DNA of 64,000 nucleotides. Source: Squalus acanthias (lineage: Eukaryota). Position 1 is the first letter of the stretch. Every line of letters starts with the position of its first letter. This document shows positions 16,739 through 57,520 of this stretch, one piece after another. The position numbers and the translations under genes were made by a program. The DNA is taken from NCBI GenBank assembly GCA_030390025.1, contig CM059432.1, positions 83,578,001-83,642,000 of the forward strand. Direction: 5' to 3'. The notes below the pieces were generated by a model. That model saw nothing but the letters and a program-made list of their open reading frames with translations, made no database searches and was not told the origin of the DNA.

Positions 16739-16829
16739 ACAATGTTGCAAGAGTTGTAAAATCATGGAGACACCATTATTGGGACAGTAATCTGACCTCA
16801 AGCCTAATGGAAGGAAGCAGAGAAATAAA

Positions 16830-17722
16830 GGGGGAAAAATTCAGTTGGTTGTGCCTCCCGTTAGCGCCTTAAGAGGGTGCTAATGGGGCGCAAAGCAACT
16901 AGCGCCCAGGCGCGGCGATGTTTGTGCCGCTTGCGAAATTAACTAGACATTTTGCGGCGGCGCTAAACACTACCGCCACGATCTCCTGCGCCGGCAGATC
17001 GTGACGTCAGTCGAGTGCGCAACACCCCGGTATCGCCCCGGAGCGGATATTGAGTGGCGCCCCCTGCCTTACCGCCTGACGCTAGCAACGACAGGTTGAG
17101 GGGAGCGTTTTGCAGTCATGAAGGGACTAGGGGAGCGCTATTTAAAGGCGACCGCTTCCTGCCTTTTATTGTTGGTGCCATTTTTGAACCACGCATTCTG
17201 AGAGAGAGAGAGAGAGACTTCTGGAGAGATTCAACGCTGTGTGAAGGAGTTTTGGGTACTGAGCAGCACTTTGCAGGTTCATTTTGATCTGCCATTCCTT
17301 GTATCGATTTAGAAGAGTCTGTGGGTGTTGCACTCTGAGCTCTTTCCTGGGTACTCTCCATTTTTCTTTACAGCAGATTTGATGTGCAGGTCTCTCCAGG
17401 CAGAGATTCAAGGCTGCAATGAGCAGGATGTGGATGGGAAGCAAGATCAACCCTCCCCTTTAAGAACTGGCCCGCGCCATTGTGTGTGTGTTCCATTGCT
17501 GACTGACATCACATGAGCTTTGCCAGCGCTCTGAGGTAGCGCCTCGCTCCTCGGCCTTTGCGCCTTAAGACAGGTGTGAAGCGCCTGATTTAGCGCTCCA
17601 ATCACCTCCAGGGGCGATAAAAGTCAAGTTTGCAGTCGGTGGCGATAATTAGCGCCAGGCGCTAATCTTTGCGCCCGGCCGATAATTGCGCCCCAAATGG
17701 GGCGATACTGAATTTCTCCCCC
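16830..17722 (+). mobile_element. Harbinger MITE family M1, copy 1 (893 bp)
   Basis: TIR GGGGGAAAAATTCAG / CTGAATTTCTCCCCC with AAA TSD. Near-identical to 39563-40455 and to inverted 56556-57450. Confidence 0.95.
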
Positions 17723-17913
17723 AAATAGTCTAGATAGAACAGGAATAACATAGTGAATTTTCGTAAATTCATTTTCTCCACTATGGCCTTCTGGTGAAAA
17801 CAGTTTCCTTTTGGCATGGAACATAGAAACATAGAAGATAGGAGCAGGAGTAGGCCATTTGGCCCCTCGAGCCTGCTCCGCCACTTAATGAGATCATGGC
17901 TGATCATCCAAAT

Positions 17914-20910
17914 TCAGTACCCTGTCCCTGCTTTCTCCCCATATCCCTTGATCCCTTTAGCCTTAAGAAATATATCTAACTCCTTCTTGAATATATTTAA
18001 TGAATTGGCCTCAACTGCCTTTTGTGGTAGAGAATTCCACAGGTTCACCACTCTCTGGGTGAAGAAATTCCTCCTCATCTCTGTCCTAAATGGCTTACCC
18101 CTTATCTTTAGACTGTGACCCCTGGTTCTGGACTCCCCCGCCATCGGGAACATCCTTCCTGCATCTAGTCTGTCTAGTCCTGTTAGAATTTTATAAGTTT
18201 CAATGAGATCCCCTCTCATTCTTCTAAACTCTAGCGAATATAAGCCCAATCGACCCAATCTCTCCTCATACGTCATTCCTGCCATCCCAGGTATCAGTCT
18301 GGTGAATCTGCGCTGCACTCCCTCCATGGCAAGAAGATCCTTCCTCAGATAAGGCGACCAAAACTGCACACAATACTCAAGGTGTGGTCTCACCAAGGCC
18401 CTGTACAACTGTAGCAAGACATCCTTGCTCCTGTACTCGAATCCTCTCCCTATGAAGGCCAACATACCATTTGCCTTCTTAACCGCCTGCTGCACCTGCA
18501 TGCTTACCTTCAGCGACTGGTGCACAAGGACACCCAGGTCTCGTTGCACTTCCCCTTCTCCCAATCTATTGCCATTCAGATAATAATCTGCCTTCCTGTT
18601 TTTGCCACCAAAGTGGATAACCTCGCATTTATTCACATTATACTGCATCTGCCATGCATCTGCCCAATCACCCAACCTGTCCAAATCATACTGGAGTTTC
18701 TCGGCATCCTCCTCACAGCACACACGCCCACCCAGCTTTGTGTCATCTGCAAACTTGGAGATATTACATCTAGTTCCCTCGTCTAGATCATTAATATATA
18801 TTGTGAAAAGCTGGGGTCCTAGCACCGATCCCTGCGGTACCCCACTAGTCACTGCCTGCCACTCGGAAAAAGACCCGTTTATTCCAACTCTTTGCTTCCT
18901 GTCTGCCAACCAGTATTCTATCCAAGTCAGTACCTTACCCCCCAATCCCATGTGCTTTAACTTTGCACGCTAATTTCTTATGCGGGACCTTATCGAAAGC
19001 TTTCTGAAAGTCCAAATACACCACATCCACTGGTTCTCCCTTATCTATTCTACCAGTTACATCCTCAAAAAATTCCAGTAGATTAGTCAAGCACAATTTA
19101 CCTTTTGTAAATCCATGTTGACTTTGTCCGATCCTGTCACTGTTTTCCAAATGCTTTGCTATTACATCTTTTATAATGGACTCTAGCATTTTCCCCACTA
19201 CCGATGACAGGCTTACCGGTCTATAATTCCCCGTTTTCTCTCTACCACCTTTTTTAAATAGTGGGGTTACACTAGCTACCCTCCAACCCATGGGAACTGT
19301 GCCAGAGTCTATAGAATTTTGGAAGATGACCAGCAATGCATCTACTATTTCTAGGGCCACTTCCTTAAGTACCCTAGGATGTAGATTATCAGGCCCTGGG
19401 GATTTATCGGCCTTCAATCCCATCAATTTCCCGAACACCATTTCCCTGCAAATACTGATTTCATTCAGTTCCTCCCTCTCATTAGACCCTATGTTCCCCG
19501 ACATTTCTGGAAGGTTATTTGTGTCCTCCTTTGTGAAGACAGAACCAAAGTATGTATTTAATTGGTCAGCCATTTCTTTGTTCCCCATTATAAATTCCCC
19601 TGATTCTGACTGCAAAGGGACCTACGCTTGACTTCACCAATCTTTTTCTCTTCACATATCTATAGAAGCTTTTACAGTCAGTTTTTATGTTCCCTGAAAG
19701 TTTACTCTCATACTCTATTTTCCCCCTCTTAATTAATCCTTTTGTCCTCCTTTGCTGAATCCTAAACTGCTCCCAATCCTCAGGTTTGTTGCTTTTTCTG
19801 GCCAATTTATATGTCCTCTCCTTGGATCTTATGCTATCCCTAATTTCCCTTGTTAGCCAAGGTTGCGCCATCTTTTTGTTTTATTTTTATGCCAGACAAA
19901 GATGAACAAATTCTGTAGTTCATCCATGCGATCTTTAAGTGTTTGCCAATGCCTATCCACCGTCAACCCTTTAAGTAACGTTCCCCAATCCATCCTAGCC
20001 AACTCGCCCCTCATACCATCGTAGTTTCCTTTATTTAAAAATTCAGGACCCTAGTCTCTGAGTCAACTACTTCACTCTCCATCTTAATGAAGAATTCTAT
20101 CATATTATGATCGCTCCTCCCCAAGGGGCCTCACACAACAAGATTGCTAATCAATCCTTTCTCATTACATAATACCCAGTCTAAGATGGCCTGATCTCTA
20201 GTTGGTTCCTCGACATTTTGGTCCAGGAAACCATCCCGTATACACTCTAGGAATTCCTCCTCCACAGTATTGTTACTAATTTGGTTAGCCCAATCTATAT
20301 GTAGATTAAAGTCACCCATGATAACTGCTGTGCCCTTATTGCACGCATCTCTAATTTCCTGTTTAGTGCCATCCCCAACCTCAGCATTACTGTTTGGGGG
20401 TCTGTATACATCTCCCACTAAAGTTTTCTGCCCCTTGGTATTTCTCAGCTCTACCCATACAGATTCCACATCATCAGAGCTAATATCCTTCCTTACTATT
20501 GTGTTAATCTCCTCTTTAACCAGCAATGCTACCCCACCTCCTTTTCCTTTTTGCCTGTCCTTCCTGAATATTGAAAATCCCTGGATGTTGAATTCCCAGC
20601 CTTGGTCACCCTGGAGCCATGTCTCCGTAATCCCAATTATATCATATCCATTTACATCTATTTGCGTAGCTCATTCATCCACCTTATTACGAATGCTACT
20701 TGCATTAAGACACAAAACCTTCAGGCTTGTTTTTTTAACACTCTTCGTCCTTTTAGAATTATTATTTACTGTGGCCCTCTTTGATTTACACACTTGATTT
20801 CTCTGCCTTCCCCTTTTGCTTTTCTCCTTCCTGTCTTTTGCTTCTATCCTTGCTTCCCTTTCCTCTGTCTCCCTGCACAGGTCCCCAACCCCATGCCATT
20901 TTAGTTTAAA
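17914..20910 (-). pseudogene. CR1 ORF2 (EN+RT), disrupted
   Basis: ORFs 20671-21069, 20131-20526, 19566-19871, 18935-19615 and 17914-18951 are successive pieces. Confidence 0.93.
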
Positions 20911-21974: not shown

Positions 21975-22080
21975 GGCAGTGAAATCATGCAATAGTGAAT
22001 ATATCACAGGACATAATGCAAAATCGAGTAATAATAAATACACCATAGGACATATGCACAAACATGCAATAATGAATATA
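21975..22080. repeat. Degenerate ~39-bp minisatellite, left part
   Basis: Units like GTGAATATATCACAGGACATAATGCACAATCATGCAATA. Continues at 27405-27545, with traces at 29085-29135. Confidence 0.7.
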
Positions 22081-22155
22081 GATACATAGAAGAGTACAGC
22101 ACAGTACAGGCCCTTCGGCCCTCGATGTTGTGCCGAGCATTGTCCGAGACCAAGA

Positions 22156-25100
22156 TCAAGCTATCACACTCCCTATCACTCTGGTGCGCTCCATGTGCTT
22201 ATCCAATAACCGCTTGAAAGTTCCTAAAGTGTCCGACTCCACTATCACAGCAGGCAGTCCATTCCACACCCCAACCACTCTCTGAGTAAAGAATCTACCT
22301 CGGCCATCCCTTCTATATCTCCCCCCATGCACCTTATAGTTATGCCCCCTTGTAACAGCTGCCTCTACCCGAGGAAATAGTCTCTGAACATCCACTCTAT
22401 CTATCCCCCTCATCATCTTATAAACCTCTATTAAGTCGCCTCTCATCCTCCTCCGCTCTAAAGAGAAAAGCCCCAACTCCCTCAATCTTTCCTCATAAGA
22501 CCTCCCCCCCAAACCAGGCAGCATCCTGGTAAATCTCCTTTGCACTCTTTCCAATGCTTCCACGTCCTTCCTATAGTGAGGTGACCAGAACTGCACACAA
22601 TATTCCAAATGCGGTCTCACCAAGGTCCTGTACAGTTGCAGCATAACCTCACGGTTCTTAAACTCAAACCCTCTGTTAATAAACGCCAACACACCATAGG
22701 CCTTCTTTACTGCTCTATCCACTTGAGTGGCAACCTTCAGAGATCTGTGGATATGAACCCCCAGATCCCTCTGCTCCTCCACGTTCCTCAGAACCCTGCT
22801 GTTGACCCTGTAATCCTTATTCGAATTTGCCCTACCAAAATGAATCACCTCGCACTTATCAGGGTTAAATTCCATCTGCCATTTTTCGGCCCAGCTCTGC
22901 ATCCTATCAATGTCTCTTTGCAGCCTACAACTGCCCTCCACCTCATCCACTACTCCACCAATCTTGGTGTCATCAGCAAATTTACTGATCCACCCTTCAG
23001 TCCCCTCCTCCAAGTCATTGATAAAAATCACAAACAGCAGAGGACCCAGCACCGACCCCTGTGGCACACCGCTGGTAACTGGTCTCCAGTCCGAAAATGT
23101 TCCATCCACCACCACCCTCTGCCTTCTATGAGATAGAGAGGTCGCACAACACCAGGTTATAGTCCAACAGTTTTATTTGAAATCACAAGCTTTCGGAGCT
23201 ATCACTCCTTCCTCAGGTGAAGTAAATTGGATACAGAATCGCCAGAGCATATATAGATGGAAAAAAAAGCATGTGTACTTTACAATTGCAGACCAATAAA
23301 TTAAATCATCCTGACTATCTGCCGAGGTGTGATAAAGTTAATTAAGTCAGCCAGGAAGGTACCACATCAAAAGACATAGCAAGATACAACTGAGACAATG
23401 AGGTGTAGTCGCAGGGGTTCCAACGTGTCAAAAGCTGCCGTCTGTATGTAAAACGAAAAGCTTTAAAAAAAAAAAATTTACTTTTTTACTGGGAAAATTT
23501 TTACTTTTTTACTGGGAATCACATCTGTGAACAAGCTAACGACGACTCGAGTCCGGATCACGTCATGTATCGTGACATAAACCCAAGATCCCGATTGAGA
23601 CCGTCTTCATGAGTTCGGAACTTGGCTATCAGTTTCTGCTCGATGATTTTGCGTTGTCGTGTGTTTCTAAGGTTGCCTTGGAGAACGCTTACCCGCAGAT
23701 CCGAGGCTGAATGTCCTTGACTGCTGAAGTGTTCCCCGACTGGGAGGTAACAATCCTGCCTGGCGATTGTTGCGCGGTGCTCGTTCATACGTTGTCTCAG
23801 TGTCTGCATGGTCTCGCCGATGTACCATGAGATAGCCAGTTACTTATCCAATCGGCCAAATTTCCCTCTATCCCACAACTCCTTACTTTCTTCATGAGAC
23901 GACCATGGGGAACCTTATCAAACGCCTTACTAAAATCCATGTATACGACATCAACTGCTCTACCTTCATCTACACACTTAGTTACCTCCTCAAAGAATTC
24001 AATCAAATTTGTTAGGCAAGACTTACCCTTCACGAATCCGTGTTGACTATCCCTGATTAAGTTGCCCCTTTCCAAATGGTCATAAATCCTATCCCTCAGG
24101 ACCTTTTCCATTATCTTACCAACCACCGAAGTAAGACTAACCGGCCTATAATTACCAGGGTCATTCCTATTTCCTTTCTTGAAGAGAGGAACAACATTCG
24201 CCACTCTCCAGTCCTCTGGCACCATCCCCGTGGACAGTGAGGACCCAAAGATCAAAGCCAGAGGCTCTGCAATCTCCTCCCTTGCCTCCCAAAGAATCCT
24301 AGGATATATCCCATCTGGCCCAGGGAACTTATCGACCCTCAGGTTCTTCAAAATTGCTAAAACATCTTCCCTCAGAACATCTACCACCTCCAGCCTATCC
24401 ACCTTTATCACACTCTCATCCTCAAGAACATGGCCCCTCTCCTCGGTGAACACTGACGAAAAGTATTCATTCATCACCTCTCCTATCTCTTCTGACTCCA
24501 TGCACAAGTTCCCACTACTGTCCTTGACCGGCCCTACCCTCACCCTGGTCATTCTTTTATTTCTCACATAAGAGTAAAAAGCCTTGGGGTTTTTCTTGAT
24601 CCGACCCGCCAAGGACTTCTCATGCCCCCTCCTAGCTCTCCTAAGCTCTTTTTTTAGCTCATTCCTTGCTACCTTGTACCCCTCAATCGACCCAACTGAA
24701 CCTTGTTTTCTCATCCTTACATACGCTTCCTTTTTCCTCTTGACTAGACATTCAACCTCTTTTGTGAACCATGGTTCTCTCACTCGGCCATTTCCTCCCT
24801 GCCTGACAGGGACATACCTATCAAGGACACGCAGTAATTGCTCCATGAAAAAGCTCCACTTTTCGTTTGTGCCTTTCCCTGATAGTTTCTGTTCCCATCT
24901 TATACTCCCTAATTCTTGCCTAATCGCATCATAATTACCCCTCCCCCAATTATAAACCCTGCCCTGCCGTATGGCCCTATCCCTCTCCATTGCAATAGTG
25001 AAAGTTACCGAATTGTGGTCACTATCTCCAAAGTGCTCTCCCACATACAAATCAAACACTTGGCCCGGTTCATTACCCAGTACCAAATCCAACGTGGCCC

Positions 25101-26679
25101 CACCTCTTGTTGGCCTATCCACATATTGTGTCAGGAAACCCTCCTGCACACACTGTGCAAAAACTATCCCATCCGAACTGTTTGACCTATAAAGGTTCCA
25201 ATCAATATTTGGAAAGTTGAAGTCACCCATGACAACTATTCTGTGACCTCCACACCTATTCATAATCTGCTTTGCAATTTCTTCCTCCACATCTTTATTA
25301 CTATTTGGGGGCCTGTAGAAAACTCCTAACAACGTGACCGCTCCTTTCCTATTTCTAACTTCAGCCCATATTACCTCAGACGGCAGATCCCCCTCGAACT
25401 GCCTTTCTGCCGCTGTTAAACTATCCTTGATTAACAATGCTACTCCTCCACCTTTCTTACCAACTTCCCTACTCTTACTGAAACATCTATACCCCGGAAC
25501 TTCCAACAACCATTCCTGTCCCTGTTCTAACCATGTCTCCGTAATGGCCACCACATCGTAGTCCCAAGTACCAATCCACGCTCCAAGTTCTCCTACCTTA
25601 TTCCGGATGCTCCTTGCATTGAAGTAGACACACTTCAAGCCATCTTCCTGTCTGCCGGTACATTCCTGCGACCTTGATACCCTCCTCAGTACCTCCGTAC
25701 ACTCACCACTGGCTCGTGGACTACAGCCCTTTTTCCCATCCCCCTGACAAATTAGTTTAAACCCCCCCCGAAGAGCCGTAGCAAATTTCCCTCCCAGGAT
25801 ATTGGTGCCCCTCTGGTTCAGGTGCAAACCGTCCTGTTTGTACAGGTCCCACCTTCCCCAGAATGTGCTCCAATTATCCACATAACTGAAACCCTCCCCG
25901 CTACACCATCCCTGCAGCCACGTGTTTATCTGCACTCTCTCCCTGTTCCTCAACTCGCTAGCACGTGGCACCGGCAACAAACCAGAAATTACAACATGGT
26001 TTGTACTGGCTCTCAGCTTCCAACCTAGCTCCCTAAATTCCTGTTTTAAATCCCCGTCCCTTCTCCTACCTATGTCGTTGGTACCGATGTGTACCACGAC
26101 TTGTGATTGTTCCCCTTCCCCTTTGAGGATTCTGAAAACACGGTCCGAGACGTCACGGACCCTGGCACCCGGGAGGCAACATACCATCCGTGAGTCTCTT
26201 TTGCTGCCACAGAACCTCCTATCTGTCCCTCTGACTATTGAGTCCCCAATAACTATTGCTCTCCTGCTCTCCCCCCTTCCCTTCTGAGCCACAGGGACGG
26301 ACCCAGCGCCGGAGATCCGGTCACCGTGGCTTACCACTGGTAAGTCGTCCCCCTCAACAGTATTCAAAGCGGTATACCTGTTACTGAGGGGAATGACCAC
26401 AGAGGATCCCTGCACTGACTGCTTCCTCCTAGCCCCTCTCACCGTCACCCATCTATCTTCATGCTTTGGAGTAATTACATCCCTGAAGCTTCTATCTATG
26501 ACCTGCTCTGCCTCCCGAATGATCCGAAGTTCATCCAGCTCCAGCTCCAGTTCCCTAACACGGTTTTCGAGGAGCTGGAGATGGGTGCACTTCCCACAGG
26601 TGTAATCAGCAGGGACACCTACGGCGTCCCTCACCTCAAACATTCTGCAGGAGGAACATTTCACTGCCTCCCCTGCCAT
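22156..26679 (-). CDS. CR1 ORF1-ORF2 in a single frame (CxxC zinc finger, leucine zipper, SGNH esterase, APE endonuclease, RT), interrupted by a Penelope insertion
   Basis: The 960-aa and 319-aa ORFs join in frame (..SNWLSH|RRQRVVVDG..) once 23137-23826 and one ATGAGATAG copy are removed: 2853+972 nt = 1274 aa plus stop. Confidence 0.9.
23137..23826 (-). mobile_element. 5'-truncated Penelope-like element (GIY-YIG C-terminus plus 3' end)
   Basis: YIGETMQTLRQRMNEH..VGEHF..RKIIEQKLIAKF..GLNRD; AATAAA at 23172-23177; 9-bp duplication ATGAGATAG (23128-23136, 23827-23835). Confidence 0.92.
23183..23220 (-). ncRNA. Minimal type I hammerhead ribozyme
   Basis: UCAC-CUGAGGA-A-GGAG-UGAUAG-CUCC-GAAAGCUU-GUGA: stem I UCAC/GUGA, CUGANGA and GAAA cores, stem II GGAG/CUCC, palindromic AAGCUU in place of stem III. 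Confidence 0.8.
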
Positions 26680-26875
26680 CCCCTCCAGCTAACTTGCAGA
26701 TTAAACTAGAACAAAAAAGAGCTTACCTGATAGTCACTCACCTCCTTTAGGTTACAGGAGGAGGAAGGGTGGGGGACACTACAAGTGTAGTGTCTCGGGT
26801 TTAGGAACCGCCCAACTTATATACAGGTAAAAATTAATCACCTACCCAGCAACCACTGCGTCCCACACTTTAAAA

Positions 26876-27402
26876 GCCTCTGTGGGCCTACCTGGTCGCC
26901 GCCGCCTCTTGAGTCCTCCGCCTCGCCGCAGCCGCTCCACCGCCTCTGTGGGCCTACCTGGTCGCCGCCGCCTCTTTAGTCCTCCGCCTCGCCGCAGCCG
27001 CTCCACCCCGGTCCGCCGCCTCTGTGGGCCTACCTGGTCGCCGCCGCCTCTTTAGTCCTCCGCCTCGCCGCAGCCGCTCCACCCAGGTCCGCCGCCTCTG
27101 TGGGCCTACCTGGTCGCCGCCGCCTCTTTAGTCCTCCGCCTCGCCGCAGCCGCTCCACCCAGGTCCGCCGCCTCTGTGGGCCTACCTGGTCGCCGCCGCC
27201 TCTTTAGTCCTCCGCCTCGCCGCAGCCGCTCCACCCAGGTCCGCCGCCTCTGTGGGCCTACCTGGTCGCCGCCGCCTCTTTAGTCCTCCGCCTCGCCGCA
27301 GCCGCTCCACCCCGGTCCGCCGCCTCTGTGGGCCTACCTGGTCGCCGCCGCCTCTTTAGTCCTCCGCCTCGCCGCAGCCGCTCCACCCAGGTCCGCCGCC
27401 GC
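26876..27402 (-). repeat. GC-rich 76-bp tandem array (7 units) in the CR1 5'UTR
   Basis: TGTGGGCC recurs at 26881, 26947, 27023, 27099, 27175, 27251 and 27327 (one 66-bp spacing, then 76 bp). Confidence 0.97.
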
Positions 27403-27404
27403 TG

Positions 27405-27545
27405 TGAATATATCACAGGACATGACACGTTATCATGTAATAGTGAATATATCACAGAGAAAGATGCACAATCATGCAATAGTGAATATATTACAGGACA
27501 TAATGCACAATTGTGTAACAGTGAATATATCACAGGGCATGATGA
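27405..27545. repeat. Degenerate ~39-bp minisatellite, right part
   Basis: GTGAATATAT(C/T)ACAG recurs four times at 39-bp spacing. Confidence 0.8.
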
Positions 27546-39215: not shown

Positions 39216-40873
39216 GGCCCGTATTTTCCGATCGCAGGCCTCCCGCGGGCGGAGGCCTGCGATCTGGAAAAATCTACGCCCTTACCTGAGGGCTCCCGGG
39301 ACGCACACGCTTCTGCTCCTGGGCCTCTCCAAACTGCAAGTGTGCAGGGCCCACGTATCCCAGAGGCGCATGTAGTTCGCAGTGTCCCTGGGATCACGTG
39401 GGCCATGGGGAGCCAATCACAGAAGGGAATCTCCCTTCATACACTTGACAGGAAGACCGGTCAAATATCTGAATGGAGATCACCCCAAAAACATAGTAAA
39501 ACTTTAAATAATTTTTTTTTTAAATCACATTTTTAAAATGACTTGAAATTACAATAAATTAAGGGGGAAAAATTCAGTTGGTTGCGCCTCCCGTTAGCGC
39601 CTTAAGAGGGTGCTAATGGGGCGCAAATCATCGAGCGCCCAGGCGCGGCGATGTTTGCGTCGCTCGCGAAATTAACTAGACACTTTGCGGCGGCGCTAAA
39701 CACTACCGCCACGATCTCCTGCGCCGGCAGATCGTGACGTCAGTCGAGTGCGCAACGCCCCGGTATCGCCCCGGAGCGGATATTGAGTGGCGCCCCCTGC
39801 TTTACCGCCTGACGCTAGCAACGACATGTTGAGGGGAGCGTTTTGCAGTCATGAAGGGACTGGGGGAGCGCTATTTAAAGGCGACCGCTTCCTGCCTTTT
39901 ATTGTTGGTGCCATTTTTGAACCACGCATTCTGAGAGAGAGGGAGAGAGTCTTCTGGAGAGATTCAATGCTGTGTGAAGGAGTTTTGGGTACTGAGCAGC
40001 ACTTTGCAGGTTAATTTTGATTTGCCATTCCTTGTATCGATTTAGAAGAGACTGTTGGGGCTGCACTCTGAGCTCTTTCCCTGGTACTCTCCATTGTTCT
40101 TTCCAGCAGATTTGATGTGCAGGTCTCTCCAGGCCGAGATTCAAGGCTGCAATGAGCACGATGTGGATGGAAAGCAAGATCAACCATCCCCTTTAAGAAC
40201 TGGCCCGTGCCATTGTGTGTGTGTTCCGTTGCTGACTGACATCACATGAGCTTCGCCAGCGCTCTGAGTTAGCGTCTCGCTCCTCGGCCTTTGCGCCTTA
40301 AGACAGGTGTGAAGCGCCTGATTTAGCGCTCCAATCACCTCCAGGGGCGATAAAAATCAAGTTTGCAGTCGGTGGCGATAATTAGCGCCAGGCGCTAATC
40401 TTTGCGCCCGGCCGATAATTGCGCCCCAAATGGGGCGATACTGAATTTCTCCCCCCAAGTATTTTAAACAAAAATTAAATTTTTTGAAAAAAGTAATGAA
40501 AGTTTTTTACAGGGCTAAAAATAAACGTACCTTTTTTTAAAAGTATTTTTAAATGATAAATCAGTGAAAATTATTTTATTTTTTTCACTTTTTTCTACTC
40601 TTATCCTGGTAAAAGCAGGCCTTACACCTGCTTTTACCAGGCGTAAGAATTGTAAGGGTTCTCTGCGGGCGGAGGGTCTGCAAAAAGCGGAACTATCCGC
40701 CTGCAGAGGCCCTTCTCCAGGGCAGCCGAAGGATCTGTCAAGACCATTCTTGACAGATCGGAAATGCCGGTTTTCAGCGCATGCACTGTGCATGCCTGAA
40801 ACCGGCATTTCCGATGTCCCTACGGGTGGGTACACAGCACGTACACGCCCGTAGGGATCGGAATATCTGGGCC
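39216..40873 (-). mobile_element. Harbinger-type MITE family M2 (762 bp without the nested M1)
   Basis: TIR GGCCCGTATTTTCCGATC / GATCGGAATATCTGGGCC with AAT TSD. Inverted homologue of 61461-62225 and 62313-63077. Confidence 0.9.
39563..40455 (+). mobile_element. Harbinger MITE family M1, copy 2 (893 bp)
   Basis: Same TIRs and body as 16830-17722; TSD TAA/CAA. Confidence 0.95.
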
Positions 40874-56059: not shown

Positions 56060-57520
56060 GACTCCCATAAAACCCCATGATACCCAACCCAGTGTTGTGA
56101 AACCCCTGGACTTCCTCAGTATAGAAAAACCTCTGTTGCCTCATTGCACTGCTGGAAAACCATAGGATTATCCTCTCATTTCTGCCAAACCTCAGGGGCC
56201 ACTCTCATGTTGCTAAACCCACCTGCCCAATGTTTGAAAATTTCAAGATCACCTTTGCAGTGCTGTCAAACTCCAAGACTCCCATCCCAATATTGTCAAA
56301 TTCTAGGATCACCCTAACAGTAATACCAAACACCAGGACACCTCTCCTATGTTGCCAAGCACCAGGACTCTGACTGCAATGTTGCCAAACCCCAGGACTA
56401 TCCCTTTAATGCTGCCAATCATCTGGTGTTCCCTCACATGGTGTTAAGTACCAGTATCCTACTCCCCTAATGCTGCAACATTTCAGAACCTTTTCAGGAC
56501 CGTCACCCCAGTTCTGCCAACTCCTAGGAGCAGCTCCATGACTACCAAAGATCAGGGGGAAGAAATTCAGTATCACCCCATTTGGGGCGCAATTATCGGC
56601 CGGGCGCAAAGATTAGCGCCTGGCGCTAATTATCACCACCGACTGCAAACTTGGCTTTTATTGCCCCTGGAGGTGAGTGGAGCGCTAAATCAGGCGCTTC
56701 ACACCGGTCTTAAGGCGCAAAGGCCGAGGAGCGAGGCGCTACCTCAGAGCGCTGGCGAAGCTCATGTGATGTCAGTCAGCAATGGAACACACACACAATG
56801 GCGCCGGCCAGTTCTTGAAGGGGATGGTTGATCTTGCTTTCCATCCACATCCTGCTCATTGCAGCCTTGAATCTCTGCCTGGAGAGACCTGCACATCAAA
56901 TCTGCTGGAAAGAACAATGGAGAGTACCAGGGAAAGAGCTTAGAGTGCAGTCCCCACAGTCTCTTCTAAATCGATACAAGGAATGGCAAATCAAAATGAA
57001 CCTGCAAAGTGCTGCTCAGTACCCAAAACTCCTTCACACAGCGTTGAATCTCTCCAGAAGTCTCTCTCTCTCTCTCTCTCAGGATGCGTGGTTCAAAAAT
57101 GGCACCAACAATAAAAGGCAGGAAGTGGTCGCCTTTAAATAGCGCTCCCCCAGTCCCTTCATGACTGCAATTCGCTCCCCTCAACCTGTCGTTGCTAGCG
57201 TCAGGTGGTAAGGCAGGGGGCGCCACTCAATATCTGCTCCGGGGCGATACCGGGGCGTTGCGCACTCGACTGACGTCACGATCTGCCGGCGCAGGAGATC
57301 GTGGCGGTAGTGTTTAGCGCCGCCGCAAAGTGTCTAGTTAATTTCGTGAGGGGCGCAAACATCGCCGCGCCTGGGCGCTAGATGCTTTGCGCCCCATTAG
57401 CGCCCTCTTAAGGCGCTAACGGGAGGCGCAACCAACTGAATTTTTCCCCCCAGGGGTTTAGCCCAGTGCTACTAAACTCCACAACACTTTCTGCCAGTGT
57501 TACTAAATGCCAGTTTCCAT
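56060..57520. repeat. Degenerate 30-bp tandem repeat split by MITE M1
   Basis: Consensus approximately CCCAGTGTTGCCAAACCCCAGGACxxxCTC, repeated through 56060-56550 and resuming at 57454-57520. Confidence 0.7.
56556..57450 (-). mobile_element. Harbinger MITE family M1, copy 3 (895 bp, inverted)
   Basis: Reverse complement of 16830-17722; CAG TSD (56553-56555, 57451-57453). Confidence 0.95.

Follow-up and report, generated by a model that had tools for sequence, protein, structure and literature searches.

A CR1 LINE copy on the minus strand of a 64,000-nt stretch of the Squalus acanthias genome (contig CM059432.1, positions 83,578,001 to 83,642,000; hereafter the window, whose coordinates are used throughout) raises a simple question: why does its ORF1, which should end at a stop codon, continue in frame into ORF2 through a run of eight Gs? 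The fusion could mark a lineage with a single ORF, or a private accident on top of a signal of another kind. We consider it rather probable that the locus is a young CR1 copy, killed in its reverse transcriptase (RT), with one extra G in a G7 run that sits on a conserved -1 frameshift site. On its own the G8 copy is unremarkable, an indel in an element that is dead; the junction beneath it is, at the level of sequence, a well-supported candidate for -1 frameshifting in CR1 LINEs.

The element is a young full-length CR1 LINE with an esterase-type ORF1, interrupted by an insertion; it covers 22081..27406, with approximate ends and the same repeat flanking both sides (it and all its features described below are on the minus strand). 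An array of about seven GC-rich 76-bp units, 92-97% alike and recognized by self-BLAST offsets of 76 bp, occupies 26876..27406 and is probably its 5' UTR. The ORF1 region (25752..26679), whose own stop is out of frame here, shows an N-terminal CX2C-X16-CX2C pattern, a coiled-coil-like stretch and an SGNH/GDSL esterase (aa 144-291, about 26250-25807; Pfam PF13472, E 4.7e-12, above cut-off). The zinc finger announced in the preliminary description of this locus is visible as that Cys pattern, C28 being invariant and C31 at least 90% conserved across 34 aligned ORF1s, but Pfam gives no zinc-finger match for it. Then come an APE-type endonuclease (EN; Exo_endo_phos, aa 352-555, 25015..25626; PF03372, E 9e-22) and an RT whose PF00078 match is split in two halves (E 1.2e-17 and 1.9e-14): the N-terminal half (RVT_1 profile positions 5-109) at aa 836-953, 23827..24174, and the C-terminal half (profile positions 107-203) with the end of ORF2, in intact frame, at 22156..23136. 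Esterase, endonuclease and first RT half all lie within a single frame, of 963 aa from stop to stop (26688..23797) and of 960 aa from the first Met (ATG 26679). The 960-aa ORF first described as running from the esterase into EN-RT was thus found, though with only half of the RT inside. The 1274-aa polyprotein advertised along with it was an overstatement: this length is obtained only by dropping 699 bp (the 690-bp insert and one copy of a 9-bp duplication) and exists on paper only. The assembled frame stops at 960 aa, the insertion at 23826-23137 breaks the RT, and the copy, unable to encode an RT as assembled, is dead.

With an SGNH/GDSL ORF1 followed by an APE endonuclease and an RT, the element belongs to the esterase-type CR1 group; the two separate ORFs typical of that group are missing from the fused copy and present in sibling contigs with one G fewer. 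Assignment to the CR1 clade rather than to L2 is suggested by the likeness of ORF1 to bird, frog and shark proteins. The nearest named ORF1 relatives are from elasmobranchs (Mustelus, 73%; Stegostoma, 67%). The rest of the ~3.9 kb coding sequence is free of frameshifts, and its four other runs of 6-7 bases stay in frame. Given two further near-private differences, at positions 25697 and 25900, the copy is young, yet not pristine.

The insert in the RT (23137..23826, minus strand) is bounded by the 9-bp duplication (23835-23827 and 23136-23128). We take it to be the 5'-truncated end of a Penelope-like element, a label based on its peptide and not on a library match; its weak GIY-YIG match (Pfam PF01541, E 0.0045) is under the curated cut-off. 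This 3' fragment has the same orientation as the CR1 copy, and a second copy of it is absent from the 64-kb window. An AT-rich repeat surrounds the CR1 copy, and units resembling TGTGATATATTCAC occur on either side of it; the flanks 21984-22080 and 27404-27529 are alike at 76-79%. The window also holds three copies (16823-17725, 39556-40458 and 56555-57450; 95-96% identity) of a 900-bp repeat.

At the junction the minus strand reads C GGGGGGGG TTTAAAC TAA (25769-25752), exactly the G8-TTTAAAC-TAA order first reported, and the fused frame across it translates as ...ALRGGFKLICQG... The G8 run (25762..25769) has one base more than the sibling contigs that span it, and sets ORF1 in the frame of ORF2. 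It is followed by U_UUA_AAC (25755..25761), a candidate -1 frameshift heptamer that G_GGU_UUA overlaps in the same phase, and directly 3' of this by the TAA (25752..25754) that is the ORF1 stop of the G7 siblings. The 45 codons between the junction and EN contain no Met, as initially noted: in the fused frame none occurs between aa 165 and aa 473, the latter inside EN; past the junction, three ATGs occur within 141 nt, all of them in other frames. How much does the fusion itself say about frameshifting? Upstream of the G run 34 codons of the -1 frame are free of stops, so that any single-base gain there fuses ORF1 and ORF2; the likeness between the G8 product and the predicted -1 product comes only from the position of ORF2 in the -1 frame. 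The mimicry that the preliminary description had pointed out is real in that respect, but any +1 indel in the 34-codon overlap would have produced it. The fusion is therefore no independent evidence for frameshifting, and weak evidence at best.

To see whether G8 is the state of the family, we turned to public sequencing runs, seventeen of which, from at least four coded organisms, contain in their assembled contigs 80-88% of the words of 25300-26700; four (X10, X13, X7 and X11) were aligned on the interval 25350-26150. In X10, X13 and X7 one contig each spans the junction (1375, 2714 and 1253 nt, respectively) at ~99.6% identity, with 2-3 substitutions in ~800 nt and exactly one base missing at 25762, i.e. 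with a G7 run that restores RGGLN-stop. G7 is thus found in 3/3 runs with a spanning contig (organisms B, C and D); these contigs, flat and of low depth, may each be a consensus path through many copies or one single copy, and say G7 either way. The X11 run (organism A) is fragmented, with 15 contigs lacking one base (summed depth 25,281) and 8 lacking two (11,757), which indicates that the G run is indel-prone. Deletions at 25762 amount to only 12% of the summed depth in X11 (25,281 + 11,757 of 300,818). The rest of that depth does not count as G8, since contigs that are short, clipped or from a sister family carry no gap where they end within the run; the figures nevertheless leave room for G8 as a substantial fraction in organism A.

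A few peculiarities of these runs were noted. The summed depth of the G6 contigs in X11 is nearly half that of the G7 contigs: they are either real dead copies or sequencing errors at very high depth. X10, X13 and X7 each gave a bubble-free contig at depth 37-106, against a summed depth near 100,000-300,000 in X11, a contrast that may reflect a small number of copies, a recent transfer or contamination between libraries. The RNA labels of runs X1-X4, X7 and X8 are guesses, and were left out as expression evidence.

On these contigs G7 is best taken as the state of the family. The G8 run is then a homopolymer indel private to this copy or a slip of the assembly, and does not mark a lineage with a single ORF. 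Very probably the extra G is confined to this copy or to a small minority, and arose in assembly or by polymerase slippage, either at reverse transcription or when the copy was later replicated. Two of the causes proposed at the outset, a homopolymer slip and an assembly error, have thus kept their place, and the third, a single-ORF sub-lineage, found no support; among the outcomes then foreseen for a check of the run, mostly G7 (frameshifting plus a private indel) agrees best with the data, with the reservation that X11 yielded no G8 share. That assembly or consensus building added the eighth G to a locus that is truly G7 is a minority possibility that deserves to be kept in mind. Long-read assemblies usually err at homopolymers, no sequencing run contains more than 88% of the sampled words of 25300-26700, and G8 across the G run is seen in none of the 32 contig pieces listed, with 2308 further ones beyond the listing. 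Against it stand the unbroken frame of the remaining ~3.9 kb of coding sequence, its four intact runs of 6-7 bases, and signs that the run varies elsewhere, namely the G6 contigs of X11 and an extra Gly at the ORF1 ends of proteins P0014 and P0034. On account of the intact frames and unaffected runs we lean slightly towards a real slip. An assembly error would change only the origin of the fusion, and thus leave the slippery site untouched.

The evidence on that site comes from other copies. Within the window the same junction is found in two further CR1 copies, at 20910 (minus strand) and 36116 (plus strand), whose ORF1s end in GLN-stop and ALN-stop and share TTTAAACTAA at that point. They belong to divergent families and are devoid of the G7 run (GGGGAGGG and AGGGC), so the early statement that with G7 this junction would read RGGLN-stop like the other copies stands for the stop and the heptamer, and fails for the run. 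TTTAAACTRR occurs four times in the window against 0.84 expected, a number reached in 0/100 shuffles; three of the four sites are ORF1 ends, and the fourth (45525) lies elsewhere. A metagenome scan gave 49 loci, none of them a close shark sibling. The junction set (n = 16) is made up of the three window copies and of the 13 loci out of 50 that reach an LN-type ORF1 end, several of which match bird-type ORF1s; the loci left out are either truncated or distant esterase ORFs whose ends differ. TTTAAAC is present at 15 of the 16 readable ORF1 ends, the exception being GTTAAAC (G_UUA_AAC, locus L002). A stop adjoins the heptamer in 14 junctions (L022 and L034 have none); this stop may be TAA, TAG or TGA, next to a heptamer that stays the same. 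Leu is preceded by GGT, GCT, TCT or TGT, four different codons which make the conserved T a third codon position. The heptamer is in the phase of ORF1 in 15/16 cases and out of phase only in the G8 copy. From the heptamer on, the downstream ORF is open in the -1 frame, over 953-1006 codons in L002, L006 and L011 and over 632 and 438 codons in L007 and L013; in decayed copies the frame stops early. Upstream, it is closed within 1-5 codons of the heptamer in 10/16 junctions. Viral contigs gave no match with either of two ORF1 alignments or with the junction pattern, and GTDB gave a single 531-nt fragment that ends short of the junction. Two other roles for the conserved motif were discarded: a 3' splice site at first inspection (any of TAA, TAG and TGA can serve as the stop, and a pyrimidine tract is absent), and an internal TATA-like element for want of an AUG downstream in the ORF2 frame.

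The C-termini of ORF1 proteins point in the same direction. LN ends 62 of the first 109 proteins, the named ones coming from sharks, rays, frogs, eel and penguin, and the preceding residue, which takes 12 values, is one without a T-ending codon in 1/62. A set of 150 representatives at 50% identity has 71 members with a final N (52 LN, 10 GN, 3 KN and 6 other); the other 79 have different ends or are fragments, many distant esterase ORF1s ending otherwise. E, Q, K, M or W precedes LN in 1/52 cases, against 80/468 in the preceding helix, and Q precedes GN in 9/10 (Fisher p 5e-9, inflated by relatedness); the ORF1 proteins compared are related and so do not count as independent. The LN, GN and KN ends and their upstream residues would fit U_UUA_AAC, G_GGA_AAC and A_AAA_AAC, the last two being the heptamers predicted, from protein only, for the GN and KN families. 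These three heptamers are reported, in the part of PMC5009743 available, to be among the most shifty for mammalian ribosomes.

Two side observations concern the same protein set. P0198, P0222 and P0266 are distant esterase ORF1s ending in FFR or GFR, and may use a U_UUU_UUN-type heptamer. The entries of the close CR1 proteins P0006, P0113 and P0079 name Pseudomonas aeruginosa, Carnobacterium and a monogenean worm as sources; these proteins come from short contigs, and the naming is probably due to contamination with host DNA.

We regard it as likely that the conserved junction is a -1 ribosomal frameshift site through which EN-RT would be made. A stimulatory element was sought by folding. At the CR1 copy the downstream structures are no better than shuffles (z 0.73 and 0.70), six loci gave z values from -1.66 to 1.44, with no significant stimulator, and the seven-locus consensus fold (-2.57 kcal/mol) shows compensatory changes in 0/7 pairs; a 3' stem-loop 5-9 nt downstream was thus not found in single-strand and consensus folds free of pseudoknots and G-quadruplexes. 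This lack of a folded stimulator is one argument for an alternative that we judge unlikely, though a live rival: ribosomes would terminate and then reinitiate at a codon close by, AUG or not, to translate ORF2, and the heptamer would be kept for another reason. Another is that in L005, L006, L007 and L011 codon 5 of the -1 frame is an ATG; some other loci have a Met further into the linker. The ATG in several loci means that Met-less linkers are not general. In a sister shark family (P0277, P0279 and P0281) an ATG lies 29 codons upstream in the -1 frame, where the family of the CR1 copy has GTG. Reinitiation is moreover described for SART1 and L1, and non-AUG codons are tolerated in caliciviruses, according to the sections available of PMC5972666 and PMC3894237. 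However, codon 5 is TGT in the CR1 copy and TGG, TCG or GTG elsewhere, and reinitiation leaves the heptamer and the phase unexplained: it does not call for an ORF2 open in the -1 frame as far back as the heptamer, for constant third codon positions ahead of LN, or for the LN/GN/KN pattern.

An active single-ORF sub-lineage with fixed G8, present or past, in the species would read the fusion at face value, since it is in frame and clean, and the X11 deletion counts would allow a G8 share. It could also call on proteins: in a pattern scan 4/268 read from the esterase into FKL, among them the stingray gene models P0038 (...REGFKL) and P0108 (...RGGFKL), which read through the junction point. P0095 and P0165 were rejected as clean fusions, their frame shifting upstream of the junction although they read into FKL. 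However, P0038, P0108 and P0095 are one-member clusters, short (265-594 aa) and known from protein only. Searches for long fused proteins found esterase, EN and RT together in none of 2 hits (526-2000 aa) and none of 23 (528-1680 aa), which is weak evidence, and a vertebrate-wide survey lists, in the portion available, only ORF1(+) two-ORF and ORF1(-) forms (PMC13343379). With the fusion not common to siblings, as the spanning G7 contigs of three organisms at 99.6% identity indicate, and with the frame broken in the RT, we hold such a sub-lineage to be very improbable. Least probable of all is that RNA polymerase slippage on the G run supplies G8 transcripts for ORF2, from one of which this copy was reverse-transcribed: G7 directly precedes the heptamer and a +1 slip would yield exactly the G8 sequence, but families without the run (GGGCTTTAAAC, GGGGAGGG) keep the heptamer, and cis preference would fix G8 were ORF2 made from G8 transcripts only, yet the siblings are G7.

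If the junction is a -1 site, then in a G7 element most ribosomes would terminate at the UAA and give an ORF1p of about 307 aa, and a minority would slip back by one base on U_UUA_AAC and continue as F-K-L into EN-RT. What ORF2 encodes would then come fused to ORF1, in a low and constant proportion, in the manner of gag-pol. As a speculation, the necessary pause might come from the adjacent stop codon or from a G-rich tract 8-20 nt downstream. The G8 copy would simply hard-wire the frame that is otherwise reached by the -1 slip. Extended to the esterase-type CR1 elements of jawed vertebrates and to their more distant GN and KN relatives, the proposal becomes that EN-RT is obtained as a gag-pol-like fusion with ORF1, through -1 frameshifting at X_XXA_AAC heptamers that can replace one another and with the adjacent stop as stimulator; this seems to us somewhat more credible than its negation. 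In its boldest form, RNAs locked by +1 would retrotranspose in cis by means of their own fusion protein, and G8 would outnumber G6 among young full-length copies. If the conserved -1 site is real, these elements would make their RT joined to the ORF1 esterase, and the annotation of ORF2 would have to change: there would be no start codon to seek. This reading can be tested with a 100-nt reporter cassette, for which the G8 junction provides a natural in-frame control.

How does this compare with what is known? In the mostly open-access literature searched, no paper was found that reports a frameshift in CR1; the 1997 chicken and turtle CR1 papers, or Repbase, may mention one. The available part of PMC11835228 describes CR1 as having two ORFs, without a mechanism, and that of PMC3894237 treats the initiation of LINE ORF2 as an open question and does not list -1 frameshifting. 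As in the termination-reinitiation described for SART1 and L1 (PMC5972666 and PMC3894237, in the excerpts at hand), a bicistronic LINE RNA would give a low ORF2 output; unlike them, the CR1 junction has no UAAUG overlap or spacer, and in the family of this copy AUG is absent in the ORF2 frame before EN. Among two-ORF, APE-type non-LTR elements, TRE5-A and TRE3-A of Dictyostelium are stated to need a -1 frameshift for ORF2 (PMC5911963, from the extract available); they differ from CR1 in clade and have an unrelated ORF1, the likeness depending on this one statement of a review, and the accessible portion of PMC5006619 does not mention a -1 frameshift in TRE elements. Viral X_XXY_YYZ frameshifting (U_UUA_AAC of IBV, retroviral gag-pol) shares with CR1 the heptamer, its phase in ORF1 and an enzyme in the -1 frame (PMC5009743, which in its available part does not mention CR1); unlike viral sites, the CR1 heptamer adjoins the stop, and no hairpin emerges from single-strand or consensus folding, pseudoknots being outside the model. 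In most vertebrates the dominant retrotransposons are those of the CR1 group (PMC13343379, in the text available). The parts available of the main texts of PMC4120745 and PMC13343379, in which the word "frameshift" is absent, describe vertebrate CR1 with a type IV esterase ORF1, from which the Squalus copy differs in having its ORFs joined by one base and its RT interrupted, and with which it shares the zinc-finger-like N-terminus, the SGNH esterase and the APE-RT ORF2.
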